The notes: generated from the letters alone by a model not told the origin. Positions 4,303 through 55,661 are shown, counted from the stretch's first letter. The stretch: 64,000 nt of DNA from an uncultured virus (IMG/VR IMGVR_UViG_3300024999_000051) (IMGVR_UViG_3300024999_000051); one strand, 5' to 3'. Numbers and translations: made by a program.

Positions 4303-4307
4303 AATAA

Positions 4308-18219: not shown

Positions 18220-18261
18220 GCAATTTTATTTATATATTTAAATTAATTTTCATTCTAAATC

Positions 18262-23821: not shown

Positions 23822-24115
23822 TCAACTAAACATAGTATCTGGACTAATTTCGCATATACTCATTGCCACATACCCTTCAGGAACCCAAGGTTGCTCTCTT
23901 AGACAATGAGTAACAATTCTCCAGCAACTTCTACCTGTATATTCTTGAGCAACAGGATCAAATTCTTTTAGGATTAAAGTATCTTCAACTTTGTAATTAC
24001 GGTCATCTTTCCTAATATCTACTGTTTTACGTTTTAATTTGTTTGGTTTTATTACTGCATTGAAAAGTTCAGGCCAAGTTTTAAGTTCATGGAATTTATT
24101 TTCTTGTTCATTCAT
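23822..24115 (-). CDS. ASCH/PUA-like DUF3850 protein
   Basis: HELKTWPE.F.....K..DIRKDDRNYKVED.LILKEF...YTGR...GYVAMSI. Confidence 0.85.
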   Translation of the reverse strand: MNEQENKFHELKTWPELFNAVIKPNKLKRKTVDIRKDDRNYKVEDTLILKEFDPVAQEYTGRSCWRIVTHCLREQPWVPEGYVAMSICEISPDTMFS

Positions 24116-38227: not shown

Positions 38228-38538
38228 TCCTTCGATATTTATTTCTTGGTTACATTATATTCGAAATTGTGATAAATTACAATAGATTTTGTGGTAAATA
38301 TAAAAATAAAGTTGCAATAAATACGGCTTGTTGTTATACAAGAATTGAGGTTTTAGATTAACCATTCCAATCTGAACATTCATTAATATTGAATATAAAT
38401 TTAAGTTTATGCCCTTTGGTGCAGGATTTATATTCTACATGATCACAGCATAAATTAAGGCAACACCAACAAGAATGTTTGATTTCCATTTTAATCATCC
38501 TTCCTATCTACCAAATAAAAATAACATTTCATGGTAAA

Positions 38539-38781
38539 TTACTCCCAACTAATATTGTTAATTTGTTCAATTAATTGAAGTTTTAAACTTTTTAATTCCA
38601 TTTCAACTTCTTTAGTTACAATATTGATTATGTCTGGATTACCTTTGACGATATCATTCTCTAGAATTTTCCTTTTTGATTCAATTAGACTATTGAACTT
38701 TTCTAGATTAGTCCCAATACCTATTAAATTTTTATCCTCAGTTGAAAAACTGAAATATGCTGTCCACACCATATGTATCAC
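38539..38781 (-). CDS. hypothetical protein
   Basis: AGGAG RBS. Confidence 0.6.
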   Translation of the reverse strand: MIHMVWTAYFSFSTEDKNLIGIGTNLEKFNSLIESKRKILENDIVKGNPDIINIVTKEVEMELKSLKLQLIEQINNISWE

Positions 38782-38792
38782 GCTCCTAATTC

Positions 38793-39233
38793 TTAAAATG
38801 ATATTTGATCAATCAATGAATGTAGTGTATTTTTACATGTTATAAGTTTTTCATTAGCATCTTTTTCAAACATTAATGTCATTTTCTCATTAAAATGAAT
38901 ATTGTTTTCAAATGATTTGAGTGCTTTAGTAAAATCTTGTGTATATAATTCTACTTCCAATAACTTATATTTAATTTGTTGAAGTATTGATTGCTCTTTT
39001 GATATATAAAGTATAGATTCTAATATTTTTTTCTGTTCATTGATATCCTTAGAAATAAACTGAATTATCTTGTTCAGAACATTATCATCTATTGTTTTAT
39101 AATCTCCTTTCTCTAATTTAGTGACATATGCATTAGACCTTCCAATTTCAGTAGCAATATCCGTGGCAGTAACGTTTTTAGACAACCGGAAATCTTTTAA
39201 TAATTGACAGTTCTTAATGTTTAAATTAATCAT
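38793..39233 (-). CDS. XRE HTH transcriptional regulator
   Basis: LKDFRLSKNVTATDIATEIGRSNAYVTKLEKG. Confidence 0.85.
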   Translation of the reverse strand: MINLNIKNCQLLKDFRLSKNVTATDIATEIGRSNAYVTKLEKGDYKTIDDNVLNKIIQFISKDINEQKKILESILYISKEQSILQQIKYKLLEVELYTQDFTKALKSFENNIHFNEKMTLMFEKDANEKLITCKNTLHSLIDQISF

Positions 39234-39359
39234 AATATGTATACCTCCAATAATTCATTATTTTTTAATCAATGCTCCCATATAAACCCACAATGCCATA
39301 GCCATGACTGTTATACATCCTACTGTTATAGCGACATGGGCTTAAATCACTAGCATAGA

Positions 39360-39551
39360 TTAAACTGTATCTAAATATTTTCTAATCCGTTCATGTCCTT
39401 TATTGATTGTTATACAATCTTCATGAACTATACAATTTACTCCAATGTTTTCAAGTATATCCTCAATATAGTTGGCTTTAGATTTATTAGTACATTGACA
39501 ATAACCTTGAACATATAAATTAGATAGCATTAAAACTGTATTGTTTGACAT
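39360..39551 (-). CDS. hypothetical protein
   Basis: AAGGA RBS. Confidence 0.55.
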   Translation of the reverse strand: MSNNTVLMLSNLYVQGYCQCTNKSKANYIEDILENIGVNCIVHEDCITINKGHERIRKYLDTV

Positions 39552-39584
39552 CTAAACCATTCCTTTCTTTGCTCTAAATAAAAT

Positions 39585-39833
39585 TTACTTTTCCTCTGAT
39601 TCAATAGACCACATATCATAGTTTAAACTTTCCAAAACTGTATCCCTCAGTAAATAATGCTTATATCCATTTATATTGATGTATAAAAGGTCTTTTACTT
39701 CGTCCTTTGATGGATTATCCAATATTGTACTAGTCCATTTAATTTCACCTTTATCTGAGACTGCTTTCATTTCTTGGTTTTTCCATAGAATTTGAATTAC
39801 CTCAAATAAATTTAAATTAGTTAAATATTTCAT
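39585..39833 (-). CDS. hypothetical protein
   Basis: AAGGGTG RBS. Confidence 0.6.
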   Translation of the reverse strand: MKYLTNLNLFEVIQILWKNQEMKAVSDKGEIKWTSTILDNPSKDEVKDLLYININGYKHYLLRDTVLESLNYDMWSIESEEK

Positions 39834-40058
39834 AATTAATCACCCTTTCTAATTCAAACTTGCTTTCATTCGGTTTCGATTAAGACATAACTTTCATCTT
39901 CAATACAAATATCTTCAACTGTTACCAATTTGCCATTTAACATAATTAATACTTCAATTGATAAACTGTCAGCCTCTTCGCACATTTCGTTAACCTTTTT
40001 CCGTAATTCTCTTAAATCCATTTTAAAAACTCCTTTCCGTTAAGTTAATAGTTTGATC

Positions 40059-40508
40059 CTAGACATAAAATCCATGAACGGCATATTCACCTAACTTTAA
40101 CTTTGCTTTCTCCTTGGCATACTCATGAACATCTTCTACATTATCAAAACTTACTGCATAAGTAAAATCTGATCCAACTGGGCAACCATCCCCTTCAACA
40201 CATTTACCATAAATATAATCACCATAGCAATTATCTGTTAGTAAACTAATCATATACCTGTATGATTTACCAAAATCATTTCCGAATAATATCTTGCATT
40301 CTTCATACGAAAAAGGTTCTTCAATAAATACATTGCCATTATCAATAGTAACACAATATTCATTATCATCTAAAGGGAGAACGCATTCTAATTTGTTCTC
40401 TATGATTGCAATATCTCCTACTACAATATCTTGGAATATATTAAAAGACGAATCATGGTTTTTCCAATTGATATCTTTAACATTCACAATAGGTAACTTA
40501 ATTGACAT
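40059..40508 (-). CDS. hypothetical acidic protein
   Basis: 149 aa, AAGGA RBS. Confidence 0.7.
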   Translation of the reverse strand: MSIKLPIVNVKDINWKNHDSSFNIFQDIVVGDIAIIENKLECVLPLDDNEYCVTIDNGNVFIEEPFSYEECKILFGNDFGKSYRYMISLLTDNCYGDYIYGKCVEGDGCPVGSDFTYAVSFDNVEDVHEYAKEKAKLKLGEYAVHGFYV

Positions 40509-40615
40509 TTCTAATTCCTTCTTTCACTTAAATTTAAGCCCATTACAAGGGCTTTAGCATAAATACCTCTGTAACATTTTTAGCGTGTTGTTATATTAAA
40601 TCTGACATATACAAA

Positions 40616-40882
40616 TTATACACTAATTAGTACATTAATTCCAATCTTTTCAACTTGTTTATCAGTAAATAAGTATTCTAGAACTTTCCTTCTATTCTTG
40701 CCATAAGTAAACAGATGCGTCTTAATGAACGCCTTCTGTCCTCTCTTGACTACATAATCTTTCGCTCTCCATCCTTCAAAGGTATTGAGGTTATTGCCAT
40801 TATAATGAAATCCTTTCATTAATGCTTCTTGGGCAATTATTTCTTGATTAGCTTTTTGAATATTGATACTAGTAATTAACAT
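40616..40882 (-). CDS. ArdC-N-like ssDNA-binding domain protein
   Basis: TFxGWxxxxYxVKRGQKA...LFTxxQV. Confidence 0.7.
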   Translation of the reverse strand: MLITSINIQKANQEIIAQEALMKGFHYNGNNLNTFEGWRAKDYVVKRGQKAFIKTHLFTYGKNRRKVLEYLFTDKQVEKIGINVLISV

Positions 40883-40998
40883 TTATACAATCCTCCTTAA
40901 TATTTTGATTAACTTATATCCCTTAATTTTTACATGGCATAATATAGTCTGTTATAAATTATATTCGCATTATACCATGTATCCATAAGTTATACAAA

Positions 40999-41289
40999 TT
41001 AAGCTGCAACTTTTGATTTCTTTGTTTTAGTTTTCTTTTGAGAAGATACTAAAACGATTTCAGACAATGGAAGGATTTTAGTGACCGTCCGGTTATTCCA
41101 TATTTTTAATTTAATTTCTGCATATGGGACAGGATCTAAGTCGGAATAGTAAGCAATATTAATTATTTCTCCCTTGTAAGGTCTTAGGGAGTGCCCTGTG
41201 CCAGTGTAAATAATTTCTTTGCCTAGATATAGGGAGTTTAGAATTGAAGCAGAATGGGTTAAGTTTTTGATGTTTTTAGGTTTTTGCAT
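40999..41289 (-). CDS. hypothetical protein
   Basis: AAGG RBS. Confidence 0.6.
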   Translation of the reverse strand: MQKPKNIKNLTHSASILNSLYLGKEIIYTGTGHSLRPYKGEIINIAYYSDLDPVPYAEIKLKIWNNRTVTKILPLSEIVLVSSQKKTKTKKSKVAA

Positions 41290-41603
41290 TTGATTAACCT
41301 TCTTTCATTAATTTTATTTTAGGATTTAGTGTTAGGTGTTAAGATAGAATATGTAAGTTTATTTAGAAATATGAACAATGAACATATCGAACCCTTGAAA
41401 GGTAAATGGGATTGAATGATTATCGCATAAGGTTTTGTATTCCTTGAGCAGTTTTAAATTTATCGCCATTGTTTTTCCTCCTTTGGTTTTATTTTAGGAA
41501 TATGGTTAAGGTTTACAACCTTTGGTCAACTCTTATATACGATTTGTTATACAAGAATTGAGCAAAGAGCATAAGCTCTTCATAATGGAAGGAAGTGGTA
41601 CTT

Positions 41604-41942
41604 TTATGCTACCTTAGAATATTTACTAAAAAACTTTTCATAATCTGCATACTTTTTATTTTTTGTCCCTAATCCTTTGTTCATAGCCTTTGACATATCC
41701 CTGTCAGCTAAAAAATCAAGATATTCCATAATCCATTTATAATCTTCTATCTCACTGAATCTTTTAACTCCCTTCTGTTTTATAATTTCATTTCTAACGT
41801 CTTGCCAAAATCCATCAAATGATTTTATATATGTTTGCATTTGCTCACAACTCGTAAAACGTGGTAATTGTTCAATGAGATAATCTTTTAATATTTCTCC
41901 ATCACGTTCTGCCTGAAGATAATCAAATTGTAATATTTTCAT
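41604..41942 (-). CDS. hypothetical protein
   Basis: GGAGG RBS. Confidence 0.7.
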   Translation of the reverse strand: MKILQFDYLQAERDGEILKDYLIEQLPRFTSCEQMQTYIKSFDGFWQDVRNEIIKQKGVKRFSEIEDYKWIMEYLDFLADRDMSKAMNKGLGTKNKKYADYEKFFSKYSKVA

Positions 41943-42060
41943 ACATTGTTAACCTCCAATTAATTATTTTAGGCTTTAATTGCCTTTGTAAATATCCCTG
42001 AAGCATATATTTGAATCTGTTATGCTCAAAACAGGACATTTACAAAGGGAATTAATATCC

Positions 42061-42411
42061 CTATGATTGATTAAGTTCTTTTAACCTTGTTTCCATTCTT
42101 GATTTCTCATTTTCAATTTCAAGAATAGCATTGTTATATTTATTAAGTTCATACTGCTTTCTAGTATCAATATGACTCAATCTTTCATTAAGTTCTTTTA
42201 CTTCTCTGTCGATAAAATACTTTGGTTCAGCATAAATCGAATAACCCATACCACCGCCACCACGACTTAGTTTACTGTCTGGAACATCACAAATAACAAC
42301 TTTGTAACCTTTTGATTTATACTCTTTTGCTTGCTCCTTAATGGTGTCTTTATTTCGCTCATAAGAACCTGTATATCTGTATCCCTTTTCCATTGCTTGA
42401 TTTTCTTTCAT
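42061..42411 (-). CDS. hypothetical protein, coiled-coil C-terminus
   Basis: AAGGTGG RBS. Confidence 0.7.
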   Translation of the reverse strand: MKENQAMEKGYRYTGSYERNKDTIKEQAKEYKSKGYKVVICDVPDSKLSRGGGGMGYSIYAEPKYFIDREVKELNERLSHIDTRKQYELNKYNNAILEIENEKSRMETRLKELNQS

Positions 42412-42531
42412 AATTATTCCACCTTTCATTTACTTAATATTTGATCAAAGTCTTTTAAACTCTCCAATCTCTGCAAGTGTGCTATTATGTTGTTATTGCT
42501 AGTTTAGAGGTTTTAAAGGGCTTTGATAGCC

Positions 42532-42765
42532 CTATTTACTCACTAATTTTTCATCAATATCTTTCTGATTTAATTCAGGATGTTCATGTATAATTACTTT
42601 TCCAACTTGTTCCCAATCAACATCAGACAGTGAGAATATTAGACTTCTTAGAATCGCTTCATTCCCTTTGTTGAGTTGTGGAACGATATATTTACTAATA
42701 TAGATTTTTGCTTGCTCTGCGGTCATGGTTAATTCATTAGTCATTTTTAACACACTCCATTTCAA
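42532..42765 (-). CDS. hypothetical protein
   Basis: ORF; likely start MTNE after GGAG. Confidence 0.6.
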   Translation of the reverse strand: MKWSVLKMTNELTMTAEQAKIYISKYIVPQLNKGNEAILRSLIFSLSDVDWEQVGKVIIHEHPELNQKDIDEKLVSK

Positions 42766-43206
42766 TTATTCCCAATCAATTTCAATACATTCACATTTGG
42801 GATTCTCAATCCCTTCAGAAGTCTCCAAATAGTAAAGATAATCTGTTATTGCTTGTTCGCGCGTTACGCCGTTAACTTGCGCTTGATATCCTGAAATAAT
42901 GTTTCCTTTTTTGTCGATTTGATTAAGTTCCCAATTCTTAACCTCATCTTGACAATATTCTTTGTTCACCATGTCGCAAAATTCCTGCAAACTCATTTCT
43001 TGATTTTTACTTTGATAGAATACATTATCGTATGTTATTTGCCCTTCATCTAATATTTGAATTACATGAGTTCCCATAGATACTGCGTTGTATCCTCCAG
43101 AATTTACCCAAACTTCAACTTTCCCTGCAGATTGAACAACATAAATTGCTCCACCATGTTTTAGCAATTCCTTCTTAGCATCTTGGAGTTTTTTGACTGT
43201 CAACAT
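42766..43206 (-). CDS. hypothetical protein
   Basis: 146 aa, AAGGA RBS. Confidence 0.7.
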   Translation of the reverse strand: MLTVKKLQDAKKELLKHGGAIYVVQSAGKVEVWVNSGGYNAVSMGTHVIQILDEGQITYDNVFYQSKNQEMSLQEFCDMVNKEYCQDEVKNWELNQIDKKGNIISGYQAQVNGVTREQAITDYLYYLETSEGIENPKCECIEIDWE

Positions 43207-43300
43207 AATATATTCCTTCTTTCTAATTAATTTTCTGACCTCAAGCCGTAACCCAAAATTGTTATACTTGTTTTTGGATTACGTGGCCTCAATTCAGAAA

Positions 43301-43528
43301 TTAAAACATTCCATCCATGAACCATACGTGATTTACTTTTAACCCACAATCTCTGATAAAATCATTCCAAGTATCATAAATTTTTAAGATACTTTGAGCT
43401 TGCTTAATATCCTTGATGCGTGGGGTTTTGTTATGCTCTGCATGATAATCTAATGCAATTTGCTTATAGATAACTTTTCTTTCCTCAATTTGTTCTGGTG
43501 TTAATGGTTTTCTGCCTCTTTTAGTCAT
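43301..43528 (-). CDS. protein with a homing-endonuclease-associated repeat-like domain
   Basis: HNKTP...YDTWNDFIRDCGL pattern. Confidence 0.55.
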   Translation of the reverse strand: MTKRGRKPLTPEQIEERKVIYKQIALDYHAEHNKTPRIKDIKQAQSILKIYDTWNDFIRDCGLKVNHVWFMDGMF

Positions 43529-43529
43529 G

Positions 43530-43736
43530 TTAGATGTAACACACAAAGCGTTCCATGTCTCCATCTAATGTTAAAACTACTTTGTAAATAATATCGCCTT
43601 GAGAAGTAAATTGACCTGATTCTTTTAGTTCAAGGATTTCTTCAGGGTGGATTTGAATTTCTACTAATGATTCTCTGATATAGTTTTCATCTTCCTCAGT
43701 TACATTTAGATTTTCAATCATTAATTCTTGATTCAT
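43530..43736 (-). CDS. hypothetical acidic protein
   Basis: AAAGGAG RBS. Confidence 0.65.
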   Translation of the reverse strand: MNQELMIENLNVTEEDENYIRESLVEIQIHPEEILELKESGQFTSQGDIIYKVVLTLDGDMERFVCYI

Positions 43737-43780
43737 TTTTAAAACTCCTTTAACCTTGCTCCCTTAGAGCTAACAGGTTT

Positions 43781-43852
43781 ATTTTAGGCAGGACTTGGAA
43801 CACTGCCTTGCACATTACTACAGTTTTTAGGCTGTAGTCCTCTGTTAACAAT
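43781..43852 (-). ncRNA. twister ribozyme candidate (P5-type permutation)
   Basis: ACA-GAG-GA-P1(CUACAG/CUGUAG)-UAA-UGU-GC...P4(GGCAG/CUGCC) with loop UUCCAAGU; P2 and T1 complementary. Confidence 0.6.
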
Positions 43853-44127
43853 TAGTTAAGCTCTAAAATATATGGATTATTGGAGTCATATTCGTCTGAC
43901 CATTCGCTAACATCTTCTGGATCAACATCTTTAATTTTGTCAAATGCTAGAATGTATTGTGATTGCTCTCCATCTTTTTCAAGATGATAATAACTAAGAT
44001 TTAATACTCCATCATCGATATATTCAGGGTCTTGGTTATGATTTACAGTGTAGATTTTACCATTAATTCTGAATGTGTTAGAATCAATTTCCTCGAATTT
44101 TACTTTGCTTGCAATGTAATTGTTCAT
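43852..44127 (-). CDS. hypothetical acidic protein
   Basis: AAGGAAGG RBS. Confidence 0.7.
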   Translation of the reverse strand: MNNYIASKVKFEEIDSNTFRINGKIYTVNHNQDPEYIDDGVLNLSYYHLEKDGEQSQYILAFDKIKDVDPEDVSEWSDEYDSNNPYILELN

Positions 44128-44299
44128 TGTTTTGACCTTCCTTTCTTAATGAATTTTGAAATTCCCTGCTTGAAATTTTGAGTTGTGTTATACAGATTAT
44201 ACCATTTTGGTATTGGAAATGTAAGGTTTAATTGATTGAAAATCCTTTACACCAATATTATATATTATTTTTGTATTAGTGTAAAGCGTTTAGGCATCA

Positions 44300-44530
44300 T
44301 CAAAATAAATTATTTAATGCTCTTTCAATATACCATTTAGGCCACAATTTAGACATCCATTCTTTTCCTACTTCAGCACATTGTAACCTAATTAAATTAC
44401 ATTCAATTGCAATTGGTTTGGCATAGAATCTCATGGTGTGGCCGTTATAGCCATCTGGAAGGGTTATAATTTTTCTTTCAGGTTCTACCACTGAGCAAGT
44501 ACCATCGCTATGTACAGCTAATTTAATCAT
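44300..44530 (-). CDS. hypothetical protein
   Basis: AAGGAG RBS. Confidence 0.65.
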   Translation of the reverse strand: MIKLAVHSDGTCSVVEPERKIITLPDGYNGHTMRFYAKPIAIECNLIRLQCAEVGKEWMSKLWPKWYIERALNNLF

Positions 44531-44699
44531 AAGTTACACTCTCCTTCTAGTTTATCTATTTTGATAAACTCTAAACATCCTGCAATCACTAGATGTGAAC
44601 TGTTATAAAGATTGCAGGATATCTAGGCATTATCAAATAATTATATTAAGGGTATTTTCTAGGGATACCCTCGAACCCTTGTAGTATGACTGTTATAGT

Positions 44700-47153
44700 T
44701 TATACAGCCTTTTGCATGGTCTCAGTGTCTTTATTAATGACAATTATATTTGATCTAACTTGTGTCATCTCAAAAGTTCCTGACTCTAATTCTTCTACAA
44801 TTTCACCATTCAAATTCTCGAACCATTGACGGAATTCTTTTGATGATTTGTCATTGGCAAAAGTCCAATGTGGTGAAGTAATAGCAATGAGTTTCCCGCC
44901 AGTTTTTAGTAAATCATAAGCATGTTTAATATGGGACTGTTCTGTGCTGAATGGGGGATTCATAATGATACTGTCGTAATAATTGTTATTTTCATACTTC
45001 AAGAAGTCAGAACCAACAACATTAAAACCTTTGAGAGTTAATAATTCAGAATAAGAATACATTTGTTCACAGACATCAACATTATCAACAAATTTTTTGA
45101 TTTGGTCTGCAATATTTCCGATTCCGGCTGAAGGTTCTAGAACTCTGCTGTTATGGGATATATCGGCTAATTCAATCATTTGAAGAGCAATATTCGAAGG
45201 AGTAAAAAAGGTATCTCCACCTTGCGTGAATTTTAGGCTTCTTTCCAACTCTTTTATTTTTTGTTGAGTTGGATCAATTGAACTTTTGACAGTGCGATAA
45301 TTGAAGTATTCCCTTAGATATTCCCTTAACTCTTCGACTGATTCTATACCCATTCTTGACAATCTTCTACGCTCCTCAATTGCAGTTTCAAAGTATTGAT
45401 TCTTCAGAACATCAGTATTTTTGTAAATCTTATCAAGTTCAGCATCATAATCTGAAATATCAATTAGTGGGTCATGATGTGGATCTTTTTGTTTTAGTTT
45501 TGCATTGTCAATTAGTTTTTGCAATCTGTTTGCAATAAGTTTGAATCCTTCAGTGTTTCTAATGTCATTGATAATAGATTGAAGTTGACGTAAATAAATA
45601 GTGCTTGAGGGAATCTCTGCGAACCTAATAATGTCTGCTGTTATTGGAGAATTATACCATACATTATAATCAATATTTTCGACTGATTTATATCTCCAGT
45701 TTGCACGATTAAGAATACTTTCCAATGTGTCAACTTGTGCCCTAGAATCAATTCCACCAATGAAAGTCAATTCACCTGATTCAATGGCATTTGCAACATT
45801 GCGTAAAACTCCTTGCATTTGTTCCATTGTATCTGCTTGTTGCTCCTGTCCTGCTGCCTCTCTAGCTCGTTTAGCTGTATTGGTCAATCTGTCTGCTCTT
45901 TTGTTGTCAATTGTGCTTTGCATGTTGTCAGCTACTTTGCGTAGTTTGTCGCTGTTATTGCTAAAATAGGTTTGTTCTGGTTGTTCTCCTTGGTTTTCTT
46001 CAGACTGTTCTCCTAACAATTTAGATGTTGGGTCATACTTGAAAATGTGACCTTTTTTGAATCTTGAATAATAACCGCTAATTAATTTCATTTGTGAATC
46101 ATGAATTCTCCATTCATCTTTACTAAGTGTATTTATGAGTTTTACAACCCATAGAGGAGAATTGTCGCGTGTGTCAACGTCTGCTGTTATAGCGTACATG
46201 TCATTTGATCCGGTAACTGTTGCAAGTGCTTTTTCTTTTCGCTCCTGTTGTTCTTTTTCTCTCTTTTCTTTTTGAGAGATTGAATAAATATGATCAAAAC
46301 GCTGTTGTTCTTCAATGGTCAAATTTTTGTCCTTGCGATAATATTTGACATTCTGGAAATCCTCTAGGGTTTGGGGATTTGTAATCCCTTCAATTAATTC
46401 CTTTCTTTGTACTGTTCTTTCTTCTTTCTCTGCTTTGTTTTTGGTATATTGTGCCTTAATCATTTCATCAGTGGCAGAATTAAGAATCTTTTCTAATGCT
46501 CTTCTTCTTGCTCCTTTAATGTCGTTGAAGTCCATAATGTGAGAAAAAGAATCTTGAACATGATACACAAGAGCTTCTACCATGTTGCCGTAACATTCAT
46601 TAGTTAATTCCGCTTTAGTATTTGCACGTTTCCTTTTATGTTTTTCTGAATTGTTCAGCATGTCAAGGATTACAATTTTTACAGAATCAACATTTTCAAT
46701 TAGGTATGTATAATAGACTCTTAGTTCTTCTGCGGTGCCTTCGCCTGTTTTGAATTTGGTTTGCATTGTATCAAGATAGTTTTTAGTTTCGATTTTTTGA
46801 ACGTCTTGGATTTTATTTTCTGCTTTCGCTCCTAGTGCATTGGTTGCTTCATAGTTTTTATTTAAGTCAATATGTAGGCCATACCATAAATTAGAGTGAA
46901 AATGCAAATGGATTAAAACCAAACCTTTTTCTACTTTGTAGAGTCGAACGTCAATAGAGTCATATTCCTTATTAAACCATTCAACAGGATTTTCGATCAA
47001 AGTCCCTTTGTGGACTTCTCGGCCATCGTAGGAATAGGCAAGTTCAATTTTGTCAAATTCTCCTGCGTTTACGATGTTTTTAATAGTAGTTTTGGAAAGT
47101 CTTTGCGAACCTTTAGCAATGTTGGTTTTTAAAGTTTGAAGAGATTTAGACAT
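44700..47153 (-). CDS. large polyvalent-type protein with C-terminal N6-adenine-type methyltransferase
   Basis: FFTP, VLEPSAGIGNIA, DFL, IIMNPPF, LLKTGGKL; internal GYYSRFKKGHIF..DP domain. Confidence 0.85.
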   Translation of the reverse strand: MSKSLQTLKTNIAKGSQRLSKTTIKNIVNAGEFDKIELAYSYDGREVHKGTLIENPVEWFNKEYDSIDVRLYKVEKGLVLIHLHFHSNLWYGLHIDLNKNYEATNALGAKAENKIQDVQKIETKNYLDTMQTKFKTGEGTAEELRVYYTYLIENVDSVKIVILDMLNNSEKHKRKRANTKAELTNECYGNMVEALVYHVQDSFSHIMDFNDIKGARRRALEKILNSATDEMIKAQYTKNKAEKEERTVQRKELIEGITNPQTLEDFQNVKYYRKDKNLTIEEQQRFDHIYSISQKEKREKEQQERKEKALATVTGSNDMYAITADVDTRDNSPLWVVKLINTLSKDEWRIHDSQMKLISGYYSRFKKGHIFKYDPTSKLLGEQSEENQGEQPEQTYFSNNSDKLRKVADNMQSTIDNKRADRLTNTAKRAREAAGQEQQADTMEQMQGVLRNVANAIESGELTFIGGIDSRAQVDTLESILNRANWRYKSVENIDYNVWYNSPITADIIRFAEIPSSTIYLRQLQSIINDIRNTEGFKLIANRLQKLIDNAKLKQKDPHHDPLIDISDYDAELDKIYKNTDVLKNQYFETAIEERRRLSRMGIESVEELREYLREYFNYRTVKSSIDPTQQKIKELERSLKFTQGGDTFFTPSNIALQMIELADISHNSRVLEPSAGIGNIADQIKKFVDNVDVCEQMYSYSELLTLKGFNVVGSDFLKYENNNYYDSIIMNPPFSTEQSHIKHAYDLLKTGGKLIAITSPHWTFANDKSSKEFRQWFENLNGEIVEELESGTFEMTQVRSNIIVINKDTETMQKAV

Positions 47154-47240
47154 TTTAAAAGCACTTCCTTTCTTAAATCGGCACTAGGCAGGTAACACTT
47201 TTGTTATTGCGTTAACCGCCCACAAGCGACACAAGAAGGG

Positions 47241-47807
47241 TTATATAGAACTTATAAATAGTTCATCGAAATTTTGTTTGTGACTATTCCAATGTATAAG
47301 ACTATACAATTCTGAAAAATTCATGGTTAACATTTTTTCAGTAGGTTTAATAAGAAATCTACTGATTTTTTCAACGTGCCAAGGTTCAAAGAATTTTAAA
47401 AGATTTATTTTGCATGATGTAATAACCTGCAATGTGTTCATTTCCGTTATGTCTAATTCATTTAGAATGTGGCGGTCTGTTTTATTCTCCCTTCCTGCAA
47501 TATGATAAGATTCAATGAAGGAATTGTCAATAATTATTTTATGACTCATAACCTCATTAATTCTTTTTTCAATGTCTGAAAAGTTTTCTTTTCCGTCTTC
47601 CGTTTTTGGATAATCATCTTTATACAATGCGGTTTCAGAATGATTTTCATAGTAAGTTTCGCCATTCCATTTCTTAGGAATTTCCCAACATCCAGTAAGT
47701 TTTAAATATCCCCTTTTATGATCATACTCTGCATAATAGTTTTTCGGCAATCCTTGGAGAATTAATAAACCTGCTGACCCATGACGCTTAAAATGTGTTT
47801 TAATCAT
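47241..47807 (-). CDS. hypothetical protein
   Basis: 188 aa, AAAGGAG RBS. Confidence 0.7.
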   Translation of the reverse strand: MIKTHFKRHGSAGLLILQGLPKNYYAEYDHKRGYLKLTGCWEIPKKWNGETYYENHSETALYKDDYPKTEDGKENFSDIEKRINEVMSHKIIIDNSFIESYHIAGRENKTDRHILNELDITEMNTLQVITSCKINLLKFFEPWHVEKISRFLIKPTEKMLTMNFSELYSLIHWNSHKQNFDELFISSI

Positions 47808-47913
47808 TATGTAACACGCTCCTTTAAATTTTAGTTTAGAGTCTTAAATATTCTCCAAGCCGTAATATTTATATTTACATTATATCACGACTTAGAGAAT
47901 AATTAAAGCTTAT

Positions 47914-47946
47914 AGAGCAAGAAATAAAAATAATTTATCTTGCTCT
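47914..47946. terminator. possible terminator hairpin
   Basis: AGAGCAAGA/TCTTGCTCT. Confidence 0.5.
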
Positions 47947-47974
47947 ATCATATAAAAGTTTGGTTTTATTTGGA

Positions 47975-48280
47975 TTATTGTAATACCCATTCAGAACTGT
48001 AATCTTTTTTGAGGTCTTTATTTAAACCTTCAATTAAAAATGATACAAAGTTAACTTCATTAGAAAAATCTCTTATATCATTTGCTTTGATATACAGAGA
48101 AGGAAAATGTAATTGAAAACTACACATACCTCTTACTGAATTGAAGCTAATCTGTAAATCAAATTTGAAAGGCTGGTTGTAAGGAATATCAAATAATGGA
48201 ATACCATCAAAACTTTTATTGATAATCTCCATTCCTGTTTGGGTTTTGATCTCCATTAACGCTTTGTCGATTTTATTCAT
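47975..48280 (-). CDS. hypothetical protein
   Basis: GAGGAG RBS. Confidence 0.7.
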   Translation of the reverse strand: MNKIDKALMEIKTQTGMEIINKSFDGIPLFDIPYNQPFKFDLQISFNSVRGMCSFQLHFPSLYIKANDIRDFSNEVNFVSFLIEGLNKDLKKDYSSEWVLQ

Positions 48281-48363
48281 TCAAAACACTCTCCTCTTAA
48301 TTTTAGTTTACGGCTAAACACTAAGACATTATACCTAAGTGCTTAGTCTGTACTAAAATTATC

Positions 48364-48564
48364 TTACAAATGTAATTCGTCTATAACTTCTGAAATTGCA
48401 ATTTCTCCCCACCTAATGCAGTGGTTTAAAGTAAAATGTTCTTCATGAAGATCATATACTATTTGCTGTGCTTCTGGGGATAACTCGCTGTGCAATGTCA
48501 CTAGCTCACTAAATTTCCTGTGGATTTCATTTAGAATGTTTTGATCATTGTCATTTGTTTTCAT
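48364..48564 (-). CDS. hypothetical protein
   Basis: AAGGAG RBS. Confidence 0.65.
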   Translation of the reverse strand: MKTNDNDQNILNEIHRKFSELVTLHSELSPEAQQIVYDLHEEHFTLNHCIRWGEIAISEVIDELHL

Positions 48565-49134
48565 AAGTATGCACGCTCCTTTGATTTATTCTAGGCCATT
48601 GTTATAGGTATTGTCCACAATTGCCTTTTAAGTTCATACATTTGATATAGATATTATACTCTATTTTGTACGAACTTAAAAGAGAATTAAGGCTAATTCT
48701 CTAAATAATTATTTTTTAGTTTTAGTTTAGATAATTCCTAATACTTTGATACTGCGCCATCCATATTTCTGCATCTTCTTTAGTTTGAGGTACACCAAAT
48801 AATTTAAAGTCTGCTTGTAAAAATCCGTCTGCATGTAGTTTTTGAATAAATTCTAGTGCCATAAATTTTCCTCCTTTAGTTTAAAGAATGAATATGGTCA
48901 TAAGCTTCAATATAGGTATTAAAATAGGATAGTATTTCTTTAAAATCTTTGTTTTTAGATTCTTGCTCATGCTCCTTTTTTGTTGTAAGAACATATTCTT
49001 TTGAATTGTCGCTGTATACTCTTGTTATTGCAACAAAACAATTATTTGACATAATACTTCACTCCTTTGAATTTTTCCGACTAGACAAAGAACTTTTTAA
49101 TTTTCTTTGTCTAATAATAAAACTCTTTGGAGGA

Positions 49135-50388
49135 TTAAGCAACATTATTGACAATGTTTAGGATAGCTTGGGTTTCTTCTTGGAATTCTTGATCCTGTTC
49201 TTGTTCATCATTGATAGTTTGTTCTAACTGTTCTTCTTGATTTTCTTCGCTGAATGATTCTGGGGTCACTGTTATAGCAGGTTCAAGGTTTTCACTTTGT
49301 TGAGGTTGTTCCCATTGCTCCTCAGTGATTTCCTCTTGTTCCTGTTCAACTTCTTCTGGCTGAATATCTTCAACCAATAATTCTCTTTCCACAACTCCGC
49401 AAATATTCAGCATTCCCTTAACACGACTTTTAACATTTTCCTTTTTGACATTGCCGGAGCCTGTATATTTTTTATATTCGTCTGCAGGAAGTGCTTTAGG
49501 GATATAGGTCAGAAGTTTTTTAGTGGCCTCTGATTTATTGGTAGCATTTGCAAACATATAAGCAAGAACAGGAATATTTATTTTAGCAAGGAATTTTAGA
49601 ATCTTTTTGTCTTCTACATTTTGAAATGCTTCTACAATATCTGTGAATGCCTGTTCAGCAATTGCCAAAACATTAGAATTTATTTCTTTGTTATGGAAAA
49701 ATTCTTCAACATCTTTTGTGGTAAAGCTTGCGAAGTCTTGACCAGAGATTAAAACAATTGCTTGTAAAATTGTCATTTCCCTGTCAGACTTTTTCACAGC
49801 AGTAGCAGAGTATTTTGCAAAATCCTTAAATAATTTGTGTTCATTAATCACTTTTTGGATAAATTCTTGAACGTTTCTCTTTGCTACAACAAATGCAAGA
49901 TGCTCTCTAGAGCATTGTTTGCCATTGTTAAGGCGATAAAATAGGTCTCTGACTATTTCCTCCTCGTCTTCATCTTCTTCAAGCTCTAAAGCCTTAATAC
50001 TGAGTTGACAGGACTTAATTTGGTCTTGTGCTTCAATCGGCAATTCTGAAAACTTTTTACCTGAAATATTAACCATTTCGCCAGTTGTTTCAATTTTGAC
50101 AGACTCTAATGTGGTTAGCGTCCATTCATCCTTTAGAAATGAGGAAAGGATAGTTAGTCTCTGTTTTCCATCAATGGTGTCGTATGTATTGCTGTTATGC
50201 TCATTTTTGGACTGAATGAACCAAATGTCTGGGAGATAGATTCTAAAAAGAGAATCGACTAATAGTGATTTGTTTTCGATTGTCCATTGATCTGCTGGAC
50301 GCTGAAGAGGATTATCAAAAGTTACGGTTCCTTTTTGAATCATGCTGCACACTTGACGAACATTCCAAGGTAAAGATTTCTTTTCCAT
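49135..50388 (-). CDS. DUF262 (GmrS/ParB-like) domain protein with E/Q-rich tail
   Basis: QR...W...KSLLVDSL, IDGKQRLT, FYRLNNGK. Confidence 0.85.
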   Translation of the reverse strand: MEKKSLPWNVRQVCSMIQKGTVTFDNPLQRPADQWTIENKSLLVDSLFRIYLPDIWFIQSKNEHNSNTYDTIDGKQRLTILSSFLKDEWTLTTLESVKIETTGEMVNISGKKFSELPIEAQDQIKSCQLSIKALELEEDEDEEEIVRDLFYRLNNGKQCSREHLAFVVAKRNVQEFIQKVINEHKLFKDFAKYSATAVKKSDREMTILQAIVLISGQDFASFTTKDVEEFFHNKEINSNVLAIAEQAFTDIVEAFQNVEDKKILKFLAKINIPVLAYMFANATNKSEATKKLLTYIPKALPADEYKKYTGSGNVKKENVKSRVKGMLNICGVVERELLVEDIQPEEVEQEQEEITEEQWEQPQQSENLEPAITVTPESFSEENQEEQLEQTINDEQEQDQEFQEETQAILNIVNNVA

Positions 50389-50422
50389 TTTTACAACACT
50401 CCTTTAAATTAATTCCTTTTCT

Positions 50423-50504
50423 AATTAACCTGCCATCTTCAGTATGTAGCGGTTAACCTACATAGACAAGGGATTATTTTGTTTCCCTTGTTTCGGCTTT
50501 AATT
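50423..50504 (-). ncRNA. type II hammerhead ribozyme
   Basis: GCC-GAAA-CAAGGGA/UCCCUUG-UC-UAUGUAG/CUACAUA-CUGAAGA-U-GGC; GUC triplet at 50467-50465. Confidence 0.88.
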
Positions 50505-50514
50505 AATTATACAA

Positions 50515-51168
50515 TCATACCAATACCGCATCCTTTCTAGGTTTAAGATATTGTTTATAATCTTCAGTGCACCATTTTATTATTTTATTATATCTTGATT
50601 TTGTAAAATTGGGGTTATGTATATTATACCACTCCTCAAATATTGCAGTATGTTTTGAACTATTACAACTTTTACATGCAGGGATACAATTTTCTAAACC
50701 ATTACTACCATCATGTATTTTATGTTCTTTGTGAAAATCTCCTAAAATCATTTTACCTGCATACTGTACCCAATGATCTTCTAATGGCATTCCACAGTAA
50801 GCACATTTATAATTAAAATATTTTTTACATGCTTCCCATTCTTTTTCAGATATATCATGATTGTCATGTTGTTGGCTGTATCCTTGACATTTATCAGGAT
50901 TATTTCTTTGCCAACCCAAATAATAACCAGACTTTCTTTGTTTTACACCTTCTTCGAACCTAAATTTAATTCTCTTTTCTGTTTTTGCATATTCAATTTT
51001 TTGTTTTGCATAGGATTCTGGATTGTCTTTCATCCATTTTATACTTCTATTTCCTACACATTTTTTACATTCGCGCCTATAATAGATAGTGCCATCTTTT
51101 CTGAATTGAGAATAATATTCTGATAGTTCTTTATCTTGTTCGCAAGTTGGGCAAATTTTAGATTCCAA
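50515..51168 (-). CDS. HNH endonuclease
   Basis: N-terminal CxxC..CxxC; CAYCG...HKEH...NCIPACKSCNSSK. Confidence 0.85.
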   Translation of the reverse strand: MESKICPTCEQDKELSEYYSQFRKDGTIYYRRECKKCVGNRSIKWMKDNPESYAKQKIEYAKTEKRIKFRFEEGVKQRKSGYYLGWQRNNPDKCQGYSQQHDNHDISEKEWEACKKYFNYKCAYCGMPLEDHWVQYAGKMILGDFHKEHKIHDGSNGLENCIPACKSCNSSKHTAIFEEWYNIHNPNFTKSRYNKIIKWCTEDYKQYLKPRKDAVLV

Positions 51169-51394
51169 TTAATTATTTCCTTCTTTCTTTGTTATTTTAT
51201 TTACTTATTTAGTGTTTATCTCTACCCTCCTTAACTTAATTTAGAGCATATGCTCTATACCATTATAATACTTCGTGCGAACAAAATCAAATAAATTTAT
51301 TTTGGTATTTAGTCTACGAATATACACTAAGATTTGTTATAACCTCAGTGTATAATGCTAAACTAAAATCCATTTAAATGTCTTTTTTATTGGG

Positions 51395-51655
51395 TTAGGT
51401 TATTGAGGTAATATCCCACGAATAAACTTGAATTCTTTTCCCTTCTGCGGTCACTAGATTATAAACGATTGCGTCAGATTGATGACTAAAAAATACATGA
51501 AGACATTTTCCTTCTACTGGAGTAGATTCCCATGTCCTTAAATTAACTTTATTTGCTTTGACATATTTCCCAATGTTTTGTTTTTGGTGGTTTGCGCTCT
51601 CATTCATTGCGTTATCAATTGCTGCATTTTTACTTGCCATTGAAGAAAAATCCAT
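51395..51655 (-). CDS. hypothetical protein
   Basis: AAGGAG RBS. Confidence 0.65.
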   Translation of the reverse strand: MDFSSMASKNAAIDNAMNESANHQKQNIGKYVKANKVNLRTWESTPVEGKCLHVFFSHQSDAIVYNLVTAEGKRIQVYSWDITSIT

Positions 51656-51739
51656 TTAATCCAACTCCTTTTAAGTTTTCACGCAAACACGCTATGCATT
51701 GTTATTATCACAGCGCATTAATTCAAAAACTTTTTAGGA

Positions 51740-51994
51740 TTATAAAATAACTCCAATTTGGCATACTTGATATGTTACACGTAAATTTTCATGTAAATTT
51801 AATGCTTCAAGCCACATTGTAGGATCAATGTCTTTTTCTTGACATTTTTTAATATTTCTTCTAAATACATTTGATTCGTCTTGATTCAAGCATGATTCCA
51901 TTTGAGATTCTGCGAACTCCTTAGTACCAGTGGTAGCCTGTTGAATATCCATTTTACCAGTGTTAAAAACCTTGACAATTGCATACATATTCAT
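51740..51994 (-). CDS. hypothetical protein, first gene after the long leader
   Basis: AGAGG RBS before MNMYA. Confidence 0.65.
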   Translation of the reverse strand: MNMYAIVKVFNTGKMDIQQATTGTKEFAESQMESCLNQDESNVFRRNIKKCQEKDIDPTMWLEALNLHENLRVTYQVCQIGVIL

Positions 51995-52014
51995 AATTCT
52001 AACCTCTTTCATTC

Positions 52015-52885
52015 TTAATTTTGCCCAAGGTCTAAACTCATTTGTTATAAGTTCACACCTTAAGTTTAATTAATCCCTTCAGCCTGTAGTATAGATAATT
52101 TAACCACTAACCATTACCACAAGCCAGTTATAACGCTCACACAATTAAAGTTAAGTTATGTTAAACCTTAATATTAGATAATTCAGTTTTGGTTGCAATA
52201 ACCTCCGGTGAATTATCTAAAAGATTAAAGTAAATGATAATTAACTATACGACCATGTGATTGTTATTGATAGGCAAGCAATTTACACTTCACTATTTTA
52301 CTAAGTCCGTAGAAATAATAAGCAAGTGTTATGCAAATATAGTGCAATTGTTATGATTAAATTGTAATAATGATAGAGTGAAGGGATTTGGTAGAATGTT
52401 TATCCTTTCCTCTATCCTTTATAAATTCTAACATATTTTGTATTCCGTGTATCTCTATTTTCTTTTGGCGGTCATGAATCATCATTCGATCATGGGAAGC
52501 TTTCAAGAAAATTTTAATATAGAGGGAATATCCCATATGCTAGAATTTAGAAGGGATAGAGAATTGGATAAATGAAAGAGAGATTTATACTAGCCCATAT
52601 CGCACTCGAATTTTTTACCACGTTCTTGATTATAACCCTCAGAGGATATTCTAAAAGAATACTCTAATGTATGTTATTTGACAAGTGTTGGCTGGCTAGC
52701 CTCTTAATTCAATTTTCAAAGAACGTCTCAACTCTTTTTCAAGAATTCGCACTAGGTTGTTTTCCTAGTCACGCCACAAGATACTTTGTGGTTGTTGGCC
52801 CTCCTTATGTATATTATTTTTAGGTTCAAGTGAACATTTGACTTTGCTAGTGGTTCAAGAGGTTGTTGTTTGTTTCCCTCTTATG
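52015..52885 (-). ncRNA. ~0.9-kb structured non-coding leader RNA
   Basis: No ORF of 60 aa or more; many hairpins including a ~175-nt rod (52399-52572); boxA; repeated AUAAC(A). Confidence 0.65.
52713..52724 (-). promoter_or_regulatory. rrn-type boxA antitermination motif
   Basis: GTTCTTTGAAAA on minus strand, after three short hairpins, ~160 nt from the predicted TSS. Confidence 0.7.
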
Positions 52886-52891
52886 TTCCCT

Positions 52892-52920
52892 ATTTTATAT
52901 TAATGAACTAAATAAGTCAA
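52892..52920 (-). promoter_or_regulatory. sigmaA-type promoter of the leader
   Basis: TTGACT-N17-TAAAAT. Confidence 0.7.
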
Positions 52921-53001
52921 GGAAAACTTTTATATATTACTTGTTTATGGAGTCCTATTTTATTGTAGATATTTTATAAACAATTTAAAACTTCTGAAGA
53001 C

Positions 53002-53034
53002 AAAAAGACTAAGTATTTATACTTAGTCTTTTTG
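53002..53034. terminator. bidirectional intrinsic terminator
   Basis: AAAAAGACTAAGTA/TACTTAGTCTTTTT. Confidence 0.8.
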
Positions 53035-53045
53035 TCTTTTGTTTA

Positions 53046-54550: not shown

Positions 54551-54584
54551 CAAAGAAAAAGACTAGAATTTTATTTCTAGTCTT
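54551..54584 (-). terminator. intrinsic terminator
   Basis: AAGACTAGAA/TTCTAGTCTT plus U tract. Confidence 0.75.
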
Positions 54585-54778
54585 TAGATATTTCTATTTA
54601 GATTTTTAAAAATTTCTTTTCGTTCCGGCAAGATGAGCGATTTAAGATATTCTATTCTTTTATTTTCCGAAGGATTATCTTCTACAAATAACTCTGCTTG
54701 TTCTATCATAATTGATATACGCTTTTTTAATTCTCTCCATTTTTTGTTCAATTGCTTTTCTGTTTTCATGTGCGCCAA
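54584..54778 (-). CDS. hypothetical basic protein
   Basis: Own promoter, AAGGAG RBS and terminator. Confidence 0.65.
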   Translation of the reverse strand: MAHMKTEKQLNKKWRELKKRISIMIEQAELFVEDNPSENKRIEYLKSLILPERKEIFKNLNRNI

Positions 54779-55624: not shown

Positions 55625-55661
55625 GACAAAAAGAAAGACTAGGTTTGTGGCCTAGTCTTTA
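55625..55661 (-). terminator. intrinsic terminator
   Basis: AAAGACTAGG/CCTAGTCTTT plus U tract. Confidence 0.75.

Follow-up and report, generated by a model that had tools for sequence, protein, structure and literature searches.

In the nut site of phage lambda, a boxA word is combined with a hairpin that presents boxB in its loop and is bound by N. The RNase III sites of the T7 and SP82/SPO1 early operons are intercistronic hairpins, set by a double-stranded stem and internal loop. Ribozymes of the twister, pistol and hammerhead classes form clusters in phages; why they lie between phage genes has been an open question since the discovery of twister, and the consulted part of PMC6765202 calls their purpose undetermined. 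A locus with likenesses to each of these systems was found at positions 38,228 to 52,920 of a 64,000-nucleotide stretch of DNA from an uncultured virus (IMG/VR IMGVR_UViG_3300024999_000051), here called the window. It is a block of variable genes, here called the zone, where the hexamer ATAACA (AUAACA in the mRNA, TGTTAT on the plus strand) is strongly enriched in one orientation, is displayed in the loops of intergenic hairpins and of ribozymes, and is avoided on the same DNA strand outside the block. Nothing known explains this pattern. Positions are those of the window unless another record is named.

38332..52677, minus strand: the ATAACA zone, with 37 mRNA-sense copies (plus-strand TGTTAT) and 2 in the opposite orientation.

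In the whole window, with both strands counted, there is no overall excess of the word (81 matches against 88.8 expected). The excess is local and polar. Between 38.2 and 53.0 kb the 37 mRNA-sense copies stand against 12.7 expected (z 7.5, a count reached by none of 300 shuffles), with only 2 copies in the opposite orientation. The 25 intergenic gaps of this region (3467 nucleotides, nt) contain 21 copies against 2.64 expected (z 11.1) and one copy in the opposite orientation; the expectation comes from 500 dinucleotide-preserving shuffles, the largest shuffled count being 9. ATAACA is the most enriched hexamer of these gaps, above the ribosome-binding-site word AAGGAG (12 against 1.24). The genes of the zone contain 15 copies against 4.3 in synonymous-codon shuffles (z 6.0, none of 300 shuffles reaching 15), and thus the word is enriched there through synonymous codon choice. 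An earlier note on this DNA had listed 21 plus-strand TGTTAT starts, all of which are present; the shared orientation that it reported holds in the zone as a whole (37 to 2) and in the gaps (21 to 1), and the enrichment and strand bias in the zone gaps survive the comparison with shuffled controls that it had proposed; the pattern is more pronounced than the note had described. One intergenic copy (51190) and 15-16 copies within genes were missing from its list, and the listed site 38332 falls in a small open reading frame (ORF) by present gene calls. Chance or base composition as the cause of the excess is ruled out by the dinucleotide shuffles, by Markov models of orders 1-3 and by the synonymous-codon shuffles. 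In a Markov model of order 4 the zone excess shrinks to 37 against 28.9, the 5-mers themselves carrying the signal.

No close relative of the window was found among sequenced phages (no megablast match, protein matches distant). Relatives were recruited with the 817-amino-acid (aa) methyltransferase encoded in the zone, which gave three viral contigs and 39 metagenome loci, three of the latter duplicating the viral ones; the 42 loci are thus 39 distinct records. Their methyltransferases are 55-92% identical to the window protein. The three contigs, from IMG/VR, are 53-66 kb long at an estimated completeness of 32-42% and contain terminase, portal and tail genes, which indicates that the window comes from a large uncultured phage. 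Protein searches also matched contigs of 178-251 kb in this clade. The search for the motif in related phages, also proposed in the earlier note, had a clear outcome: sense-strand ATAACA outnumbers TGTTAT at all 42 loci (for example 30:2, 39:6, 38:4, 40:0 and 41:0), and this excess extends to relatives with methyltransferases just 55-68% identical. The pattern is therefore conserved in about 40 relatives. Their zones are 12-16 kb long with 2-5 copies per kb and sharp edges, and the flanks upstream of the zone (about 4-7 kb) contain 0 or 1 copy in most loci. The gene content of the zones is mosaic. Four genes only recur widely, those of the methyltransferase (32 loci), a GmrSD_N-type protein (15), a 96-aa protein (13) and an 88-aa protein (12), and the intergenic modules reappear beside different genes. 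Many of the relatives' contigs break within the zone. No terminator was found at the downstream zone edge in the window and L013, and no opposite-strand genes, sought as a natural inversion, were found within the zones of L011 and L026.

The relatives also give the form of the word. Among 793 non-redundant copies, 410 are intergenic and 383 genic, so that the motif is not mostly intergenic as had been supposed: about half of the copies are within genes. The extended form is C-(T/A)-ATAACA-(A/G). At position -1 G is nearly excluded, and T accounts for 50% of the intergenic copies; at +1 a purine follows the word in 88% of these and in 78% of the genic ones, and the flanking context is the same for both classes. 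Measured from the next start codon, intergenic copies are most frequent at a distance of 40-70 nt upstream. The ATAACA count of the methyltransferase ORF equals or exceeds the maximum of 300 synonymous shuffles in 10 of 14 relatives. No helical phasing was observed between neighbouring copies, the frequent spacings being 6, 9, 14-15, 17 and 30 nt.

A collection-wide scan for three close ATAACA copies returned mostly unrelated contigs. A strand-biased spread was seen in 7 of 80 loci, none of them with ribozymes, and in 6 of the 7 it was co-oriented with coding. These six IMG/VR loci (L058, L071, L073, L078, L082 and L120) have a bias of at least 4:1 over at least eight bins of 500 nt; one of them is 40% G+C, and no ribozymes occur in any. 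Literature searches on AUAACA in phages found nothing relevant to the word. The combination of hairpin and word is uncatalogued and absent from Rfam.

The earlier note had described the intergenic gaps as long imperfect hairpins with the word in the loop or a bulge. Its example hairpins fold as claimed, with the word in the apical loop and energies of -15 to -28 kcal/mol. In local folds, the word is in the apical loop of a strong hairpin in about half of the zone gaps of the window (copies 51700, 51335, 47202, 44601, 43260, 42491, 42018, 41545, 40950 and 39309), and several two-tier hairpins fill the whole interval between stop codon and ribosome-binding site. Across 279 non-redundant zone gaps, folding predicts 112 of 264 copies to be in a hairpin loop, the baseline being 8.9% (z 19); no other hexamer is more enriched in loops. 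No loop-enriched word of this kind was found in the 47 non-zone gaps of the window or in 46 left-arm gaps of the relatives. Loops are favoured over unpaired linkers (121:26 for the word, 1629:2200 for control windows, odds ratio 6.3). The loops that bear it are 3-41 nt long with a median of 12 nt. The stems of 115 loop-bearing hairpins have a median of 15 base pairs (bp), with 30 of the 115 at most 10 bp; a length suiting RNase III, two helical turns of double-stranded RNA or about 20 bp, in many cases interrupted by an internal loop, is reached by 45. The fold of the mRNA sense is better than that of the antisense at 59 of 76 sites (mean -17.2 against -13.3 kcal/mol, p 1.3e-8), the 76 hairpins contain 226 G.U pairs, about three each, and single stem mismatches are of the G.T type in 112 cases and of the A.C type in 48. 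The counts and the loop placement thus bear out a strand-specific signal that is displayed single-stranded and confined to one block, as the 47 non-zone gaps contain a single copy and none in a loop.

The gaps of the zone that contain the word, in the order of transcription, are as follows.

52013..52356, minus strand: long gap with four copies (52349, 52327, 52262, 52043).
51656..51739, minus strand: two-tier intercistronic hairpin (-22.8 kcal/mol) with ATAACA 51700-51705 in a 12-nt apical loop; the same hairpin stands 3' of the homologous gene in L001.
Gap 51169..51394, minus strand: two-tier hairpin with ATAACA 51335-51340 as its loop (-28.2 kcal/mol sense, -16.3 antisense).
Gap 51169..51394, minus strand: second copy, 51190, directly before the ribosome-binding site.
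48565..48721, minus strand: terminator-like hairpin, then a -10-like TATAAT, then a hairpin with ATAACA (48600), read by eye; a promoter scan gives a promoter-like site at 48617-48588, and the module reappears beside different genes in L001-L003.
47154..47240, minus strand: two-tier hairpin (-27.9 kcal/mol) with ATAACA 47202-47207 in its loop, directly upstream of the methyltransferase gene; a diverged copy stands between other genes in L001.
44531..44699, minus strand: two copies, one (44691) immediately 3' of the stop codon and one (44601) in the loop of an 18-19-bp hairpin (-25.4 kcal/mol).
44128..44299, minus strand: terminator-like hairpin, TGGTATAAT, then ATAACA (44186), read by eye.
43207..43300, minus strand: 28-bp two-tier hairpin with ATAACA (43260) in its loop (-26.0 kcal/mol).
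42430..42531, minus strand: hairpin with ATAACA (42491) in its loop, by local fold.
41943..42060, minus strand: hairpin of about 22 bp with ATAACA (42018) at the 5' edge of the loop (-26.7 kcal/mol).
Gap 41290..41603, minus strand: hairpin carrying ATAACA (41545; -23.7 kcal/mol).
40883..40998, minus strand: hairpin with TGGTATAAT in its 5' arm and ATAACA (40950) in its loop, by local fold.
Gap 40509..40615, minus strand: ATAACA (40589), with a weak local fold.
Gap 39234..39359, minus strand: two copies (39324, 39309) 15 nt apart in one hairpin region.

The statement that the zone is one 14-kb transcript is not confirmed in that form, as several gaps contain, by eye, a terminator-like hairpin followed by a -10-like sequence; the promoter scan places promoter-like sites inside the zone at 51290, 48617, 44285 and 44225. 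In the distant relatives L031 (2995-3040 and about 3560), L032 (about 2590-2640) and L034 (1650-1700), a conserved element after the methyltransferase stop codon consists of ATAACAG, GCAG, TTTAAAGGTT, CTGC and (N)ATAACAAAAACCTT. It can be drawn by eye as an H-type pseudoknot with a second ATAACA in loop 3.

Outside the zone the same orientation of the word is avoided. The window genes outside the zone contain 3 copies against 13.9 in synonymous-codon shuffles (z -3.4), and the window outside the zone contains 7 against 36.7 in a first-order Markov model; ATAACA is there the third to fifth most depleted of 4096 hexamers (Markov orders 1-3). This depletion is partly common to other TAA-containing hexamers (ATAAGA, 19 against 62.7), and the deficit in the codon shuffle still stands. 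The opposite orientation is near expectation in the window genes outside the zone (17 against 19.8). The three viral contigs were examined whole, and each has a left arm transcribed opposite to the zone, which in contig G001 contains terminase, portal, virion and tail genes. In these arms, which may be homologous and hence not independent tests, mRNA-sense TGTTAT, that is, ATAACA on the DNA strand of the zone, is depleted in all three (5 against 16.4, 2 against 7.3 and 0 against 5.0; summed, 7 against 28.7) and is the fifth most depleted of 1865 hexamers in the left-arm messages. At the same time mRNA-sense ATAACA is near expectation in them (18 against 22.0, 17 against 14.4 and 9 against 11.2; summed, 44 against 47.6), and therefore the late messages do not avoid AUAACA. 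A local cluster of the word is found in contig G003, where the first right-arm gene, which encodes 640 aa (16472-18394 of the contig, in L048) and lies outside the main zone, contains eight copies in the second half and is without a homologue in the window. Two other words are also rare. AGATCT is absent from the window outside the zone (0 against 13.5) and from the left-arm genes of G001 (0 against 11.6), and TTAACA is strongly depleted in the left-arm messages (7 against 25.1). Both deficits resemble the usual avoidance of restriction palindromes (AGATCT, GTTAAC).

The earlier note also held that two gaps lacking the motif contain ribozymes instead. This is not confirmed as stated. One of the gaps has a twister-P5 match below the Rfam threshold, and the other a hammerhead-like layout without any Rfam match.

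43789..43846, minus strand: twister-P5-like ribozyme in a gap without the motif (32.7 bits, E 0.0016, under the gathering score of 37.6).
50436..50494, minus strand: hammerhead-like layout (GAAA, stem III, GUC, stem I, CUGAAGA; stem II open) in a gap without the motif.

At gathering thresholds Rfam has no match in the window, the twister-P5-like element failing that of RF02684; at E<=5 the only matches in the window are this twister and spurious microRNA models, and there is no family for the hairpin. A similar sequence in L017 (3963-4030) is recognised as twister-P5 at 43.4 bits. The hammerhead-like element has all hammerhead core letters (CUGANGA, GAAA, NUH) in the type-II order, stems I and III of 7 bp, and an extra U before a 3-bp stem II. 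In a search with 146 nt it had no Rfam match at E<=10, and a scan by regular expression and fold found this layout only here in all DNA scanned (one sense, no antisense instance), with none in the relatives.

The relatives have better candidates. Seventeen matches exceed the gathering score, 13 of twister-P5 (42.5-58.6 bits) and 4 of pistol, all on the sense strand; they represent 12 distinct twisters and 3 distinct pistols. Pistol (RF02679, threshold 34.5 bits) is met in relatives only, in L003, L011, L025 and L026 at 52.9-62.6 bits, and not in the window. ATAACA is in the P1 loop of 8 of the 12 distinct twisters; three more have a variant that differs by one letter (ATAATA, ATAACG, ATAGCA), and the last is closely preceded by two copies. 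The pistols (four matches, three distinct) have ATAACA in a loop and between the ribozyme and the ribosome-binding site, where it is often doubled. As the word is inside twister P1 loops and pistol loops, it is not an alternative to the ribozyme: it is separate from cutting and rides on the ribozymes rather than being the cutting unit. The idea of interchangeable processing units therefore stands in part. The slot upstream of the methyltransferase gene is occupied by a plain hairpin in the window, a twister in L001 and L003, and a terminator-plus-promoter module in L002, so the modules do exchange at the same slot; the motif, carried by most of the twisters, is not one of the things exchanged for a ribozyme.

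The zone is headed by a leader with a candidate promoter and a word that we take to be like the boxA of rRNA operons.

52892..52920, minus strand: sigma-70-like promoter (TTGACT, 17 nt, TAAAAT) preceding the zone leader, recognised solely by its match to the consensus.
52713..52724, minus strand: boxA-like leader word GTTCTTTGAAAA; the first zone copy follows 47 nt downstream.

The word class G[CT]TCTTTGAAAA is found in the leaders of the window and of four relatives, in the sense orientation only (no antisense instance); in L001, L013, L023 and L042 it lies 369-428 nt upstream of the zone. The boxA-like word reported by the earlier note is thus present and kept in four relatives. Literature searches on it found no usable source. 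Further upstream, the window has strongly promoted genes with terminators (55634-55660, 54558-54585 and 52996-53039) that share the stem word AAAGACTAG...CTAGTCTTT; between each terminator and the next promoter lies a long C-rich spacer of 300-500 nt. In L013, seven sense-strand TGTTAT are found upstream of the zone (3510-5264), two of which (4495 and 4796) read TGTTATAAT, the extended -10 form of a promoter. Thus an ordinary explanation exists for part of the TGTTAT counted in promoter-rich early regions.

The window is AT-rich (27-33% G+C), and 133 of its 152 ORFs (greedy gene call) are on the minus strand. Most genes are small and without annotation. The recognisable ones are of phage type: HNH endonucleases, a Lar-like protein, anti-repressors, an Apyc1-like hydrolase and the large methyltransferase. 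No tRNA genes were found in the window. Its motif-poor region contains the gene of the Apyc1-like protein (14803-15525), which has the metallo-beta-lactamase fold (Pfam Anti-Pycsar_Apyc1, E 3.2e-11, under the curated cut-off), and that of a small DUF3850 (PUA/ASCH-like) protein (23822-24115). The widely recurring genes of the zone are the following.

44700..47153, minus strand: 817-aa N6-adenine methyltransferase-type protein, the one gene common to all relatives, with five internal ATAACA copies.
49135..50388, minus strand: 417-aa GmrSD_N/DUF262-type protein, the second most conserved zone gene (15 loci).
40999..41289, minus strand: 96-aa conserved protein (13 loci) with a predicted small beta-barrel fold (pLDDT, the model's own confidence score, 74.8) and a basic tail.
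40616..40882, minus strand: 88-aa standalone ArdC-N-like protein, of single-stranded-DNA-binding type (12 loci).

From its predicted fold, the 96-aa protein is a possible nucleic-acid binder. Nearly all of its 17 aligned members end in K-K-S-K-(V/L/I)-A-A, presumably akin to an ssrA-type degradation tag, and by this analogy the protein may be short-lived. ArdC-N is a single-stranded-DNA-binding domain. In the 88-aa family 13 of 17 members match Pfam ArdcN (best E 2.9e-4), the window copy itself being without a match; the top Foldseek match of its model is ArdC (6sna_F) at E 0.11, which is not significant, and none was found at E<=0.001. Pfam gave nothing at useful E-values for 18 other small zone proteins. 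A 146-aa HTH protein is also encoded in the zone (38793-39233). Judged by the methyltransferase, the ArdC-N-like and the GmrSD-type proteins, the zone genes appear to be variable and largely of anti-defence type.

The loop display, the G.U-rich stems, the placement in ribozyme loops, the promoter and boxA-like start and the operon-sized confinement suggest that a single-stranded sense-strand nucleic acid is read, most naturally RNA. Among RNA models we tentatively prefer, as the most coherent, an iterated nut/boxB-like site on a boxA-led operon, and consider it possible rather than probable. The word would be recognised when single-stranded and in one orientation, and would mark the variable genes of a block of 12-16 kb, whose start follows closely on a host-type promoter and a boxA-like leader. 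AUAACA would be read on nascent or finished RNA as the iterated binding site of a trans-acting factor, by the logic of the lambda nut site repeated about three times per kb, and the factor could hold polymerase or message in a particular state along an operon full of hairpins and internal terminators. Between genes, where the RNA is structured, the word would be put in hairpin loops or in free ribozyme loops; within genes it would be written by synonymous codons. Cutting between genes would be the separate job of the twister and pistol ribozymes, and the long two-tier hairpins would probably act as RNase III-type sites. That the reader acts on RNA and not on DNA, that it is a binding factor, and what its binding does are our inferences.

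Several observations weigh against the nut-like explanation. Avoidance of the word follows the DNA strand, not the transcript, and this is the strongest single fact against any RNA model. The proposal of RNA-level control in the earlier note stands as far as the strand-specific, single-strand-displayed signal goes; avoidance that tracks the DNA strand where genes run in the opposite direction is not predicted by a purely RNA-level reading. Such a reading explains the avoidance in the left arm only if rightward transcripts enter it, and a polymerase-linked RNA signal offers at least a possible reason to avoid the word where rightward transcription might run on. Unlike boxB and MS2-type operators, the word has no constant place within its loop (a median of 2 nt separates it from either stem). 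Genic copies are in no special local fold (minimum free energy -10.2 against a control of -9.9), and in the comparison of G.T with A.C mismatches, base composition and the energy model act as confounders (G.G 85 against C.C 2). In G001 (46703-46799 of the contig, in L045) four copies with spacings of 14, 8 and 14 nt are flanked by a terminator on one side and a TTGACA/TAATAT sigma-70-like promoter on the other, the spacer of which contains a fifth copy; this array resembles an operator array and has the look of a DNA site. No binding protein for the word was identified among the candidates examined. The 96-aa protein had no structural match at E<=0.001 in a fold search, and the best-supported nucleic-acid binder of the zone is the ArdC-N protein, of single-stranded-DNA-binding type.

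Nearly as likely as the nut-like RNA site, though itself doubtful, is a polar word at the level of DNA. It would lie on a single-stranded top strand, or be read by a machine that tracks the genome one way (packaging or ejection, a helicase-nuclease, rolling-circle replication, a strand-specific nickase or methyltransferase), and would flag the accessory block. The rest of the chromosome would have been purged of the word on that strand, and the hairpins and ribozyme loops would have a second use as places where it is written and presented. This accounts for top-strand avoidance independent of gene direction (the left arms as well as the right-arm genes outside the zone), for the opposite orientation at expectation in both arms, for the common flanking context of genic and intergenic copies and for the G001 array between terminator and promoter; the conserved ArdC-N-like protein and the methyltransferase of the zone would also fit. 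The block may then be the counterpart of a long terminal repeat or of a first-entering host-takeover region, comparable to the leading region of plasmids. Its size of 12-16 kb and its small early genes would resemble the terminal redundancy of SPO1, given in the consulted part of PMC10531801 as 13,185 bp with a 24-gene host-takeover module, and the frequent contig breaks within the zone agree with this. However, a tracker of double-stranded DNA gives no cause for the preference for loops over linkers or over the baseline, and the three or so G.U pairs per hairpin are good in RNA and weak in DNA. Reading on a single-stranded top strand would keep the loop logic, but we know of no stage in tailed phages of such kind with the top strand single-stranded genome-wide. 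The zone also starts at a transcription unit, right after a promoter and a boxA-like leader, and Chi and KOPS are enriched throughout genomes and not limited to one block.

Other RNA-level functions seem less probable. We consider it rather unlikely that the word is a handle for processing or turnover, on whose loops a sequence-specific endoribonuclease or a stabilising protein would act, timing decay or protecting 3'-terminal hairpins, by the logic of T4 RegB (GGAG, early messages) or of a MazF-type ACA cutter. The display in loops, the enrichment in the zone with depletion in right-arm genes outside it, and the stems of at least 20 bp in 45 of 115 hairpins, suiting RNase III-type substrates, agree with such a handle. 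So does the twister alignment: with the cleavage site placed as we presume from the twister fold, the P1 hairpin with its AUAACA loop would end the upstream message. But late structural messages do not avoid AUAACA, so that the avoidance is not an escape from a nuclease; a loop cutter would duplicate the job of the ribozyme that carries the word; and no nuclease candidate was found, with no RNase III domain in the three relatives' contigs at their 32-42% completeness. The twister alignment also counts against a translation enhancer or ribosome standby site, an unstructured A/CA-rich word upstream of each ribosome-binding site like the ACA motifs of enterobacteria, as the copy in a twister ends up on the upstream cleavage product. 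This function, which we hold to be improbable, is suggested by the peak of intergenic copies 40-70 nt before the next start codon and by the pistols and distant relatives with copies adjoining the ribosome-binding site or between it and the start codon; according to the consulted part of PMC3879156, ACA motifs enhance translation without strict positioning. It leaves the enrichment deep in genes, the confinement to one block and the strand-wide avoidance elsewhere unexplained. Still less credible is a minimal promoter or -10-like element for a phage polymerase or sigma factor, pre-melted in a hairpin by the logic of the N4 hairpin or the AACA-type promoter of AR9. The word does resemble a TATAA-type -10, with T at -1 in half of the intergenic copies, and stands upstream of most zone genes, and minimal promoters of 4-8 nt are known for jumbo-phage polymerases (consulted part of PMC7598289). 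However, promoters work in either orientation and the opposite one is not avoided outside the zone (17 against 19.8; 44 against 47.6), the better-folding strand is the non-template strand, and half of the copies are genic. The AR9-type late promoter (AACA-N6-T-A/G, from the same part of PMC7598289) was rejected, there being no enrichment at the positions that it requires: T is found there in 33% of intergenic and 22% of genic copies, and A+G in 48%. Also rejected was integron-like or cassette recombination at the word: 10 of 88 block ends lie within 3 nt of its 3' end, representing just two independent events, and none of the 88 block starts does. Two homology breakpoints are exactly at the 3' end of ATAACA, maybe by chance: an insertion of about 205 nt in the window relative to L001-L003, which begins exactly after copy 52327-52332, and a mosaic joint in the GmrSD-type gene at 49270-49275.

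Compared with known systems, the locus has with lambda nut and rRNA boxA in common a boxA-like word heading a long operon and a polar, operon-specific hairpin loop that presents a short A-rich word. However, there are dozens of copies per operon and not one per arm, loop size (3-41 nt), position in the loop and distance to boxA vary, so that a single boxB of fixed geometry is not what is seen, genic copies have no hairpins, and avoidance reaches the oppositely transcribed arm. No N-like protein was recognised among the zone and window proteins. The T7 and SP82/SPO1 sites are likewise long, often two-tier intercistronic hairpins that reach from stop codon to ribosome-binding site in an early operon. 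They are set by stem and internal loop, whereas here an apical-loop word is shared and only 45 of the 115 stems reach 20 bp. As in T4 RegB/GGAG, a short RNA word is concentrated in one transcript class and accessible in single strands; RegB sites, however, lie in ribosome-binding sites, while here late messages do not avoid the word and no nuclease was identified. The promoter-early stem-loop (PeSL) cassettes of T4-type hyperplastic regions and integron attC sites resemble the zone in their stem-loop modules between small variable genes of mosaic content. PeSLs share sequence and act by homologous recombination, whereas the hairpin arms here are unrelated. In attC the core sites are at the hairpin base and the bottom strand folds; here only the word in the loop is shared and the sense strand folds better, so that identity with integron attC is rejected, and no match to the integrase family was found among the window proteins. 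Chi (RecBCD/AddAB) and KOPS/SRS (FtsK/SpoIIIE) are, like ATAACA, short asymmetric words skewed by DNA strand and not by gene direction. They are over-represented along whole replichores and flip at origin or terminus, while ATAACA is in excess only in a 12-16 kb zone and two small clusters, is avoided elsewhere, and stands preferentially in hairpin loops.

A further likeness is to the phage ribozyme clusters, as type-P5 twisters and pistols above Rfam thresholds are found in the same gaps, on the sense strand. The difference is that here the variable loops carry a word, and neither a shared loop word nor a non-catalytic hairpin in the same slot is described in Rfam or in the consulted part of PMC6765202. 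The locus thus adds a piece to the ribozyme-cluster question: the gaps and the free loops of the ribozymes share a six-letter word dispensable for cutting, and some factor therefore seems to address the ribozyme-rich block as one unit. The word may control the timing or expression of counter-defence genes, or the handling of that DNA. It is also a caution for motif hunting, as loop placement alone suggested RNA and the DNA-strand polarity was exposed only by the oppositely transcribed arm of the relatives. The combination is uncommon: one block with about three copies per kb, the word nearly missing from the same strand elsewhere, and a polarity independent of the direction of the genes.

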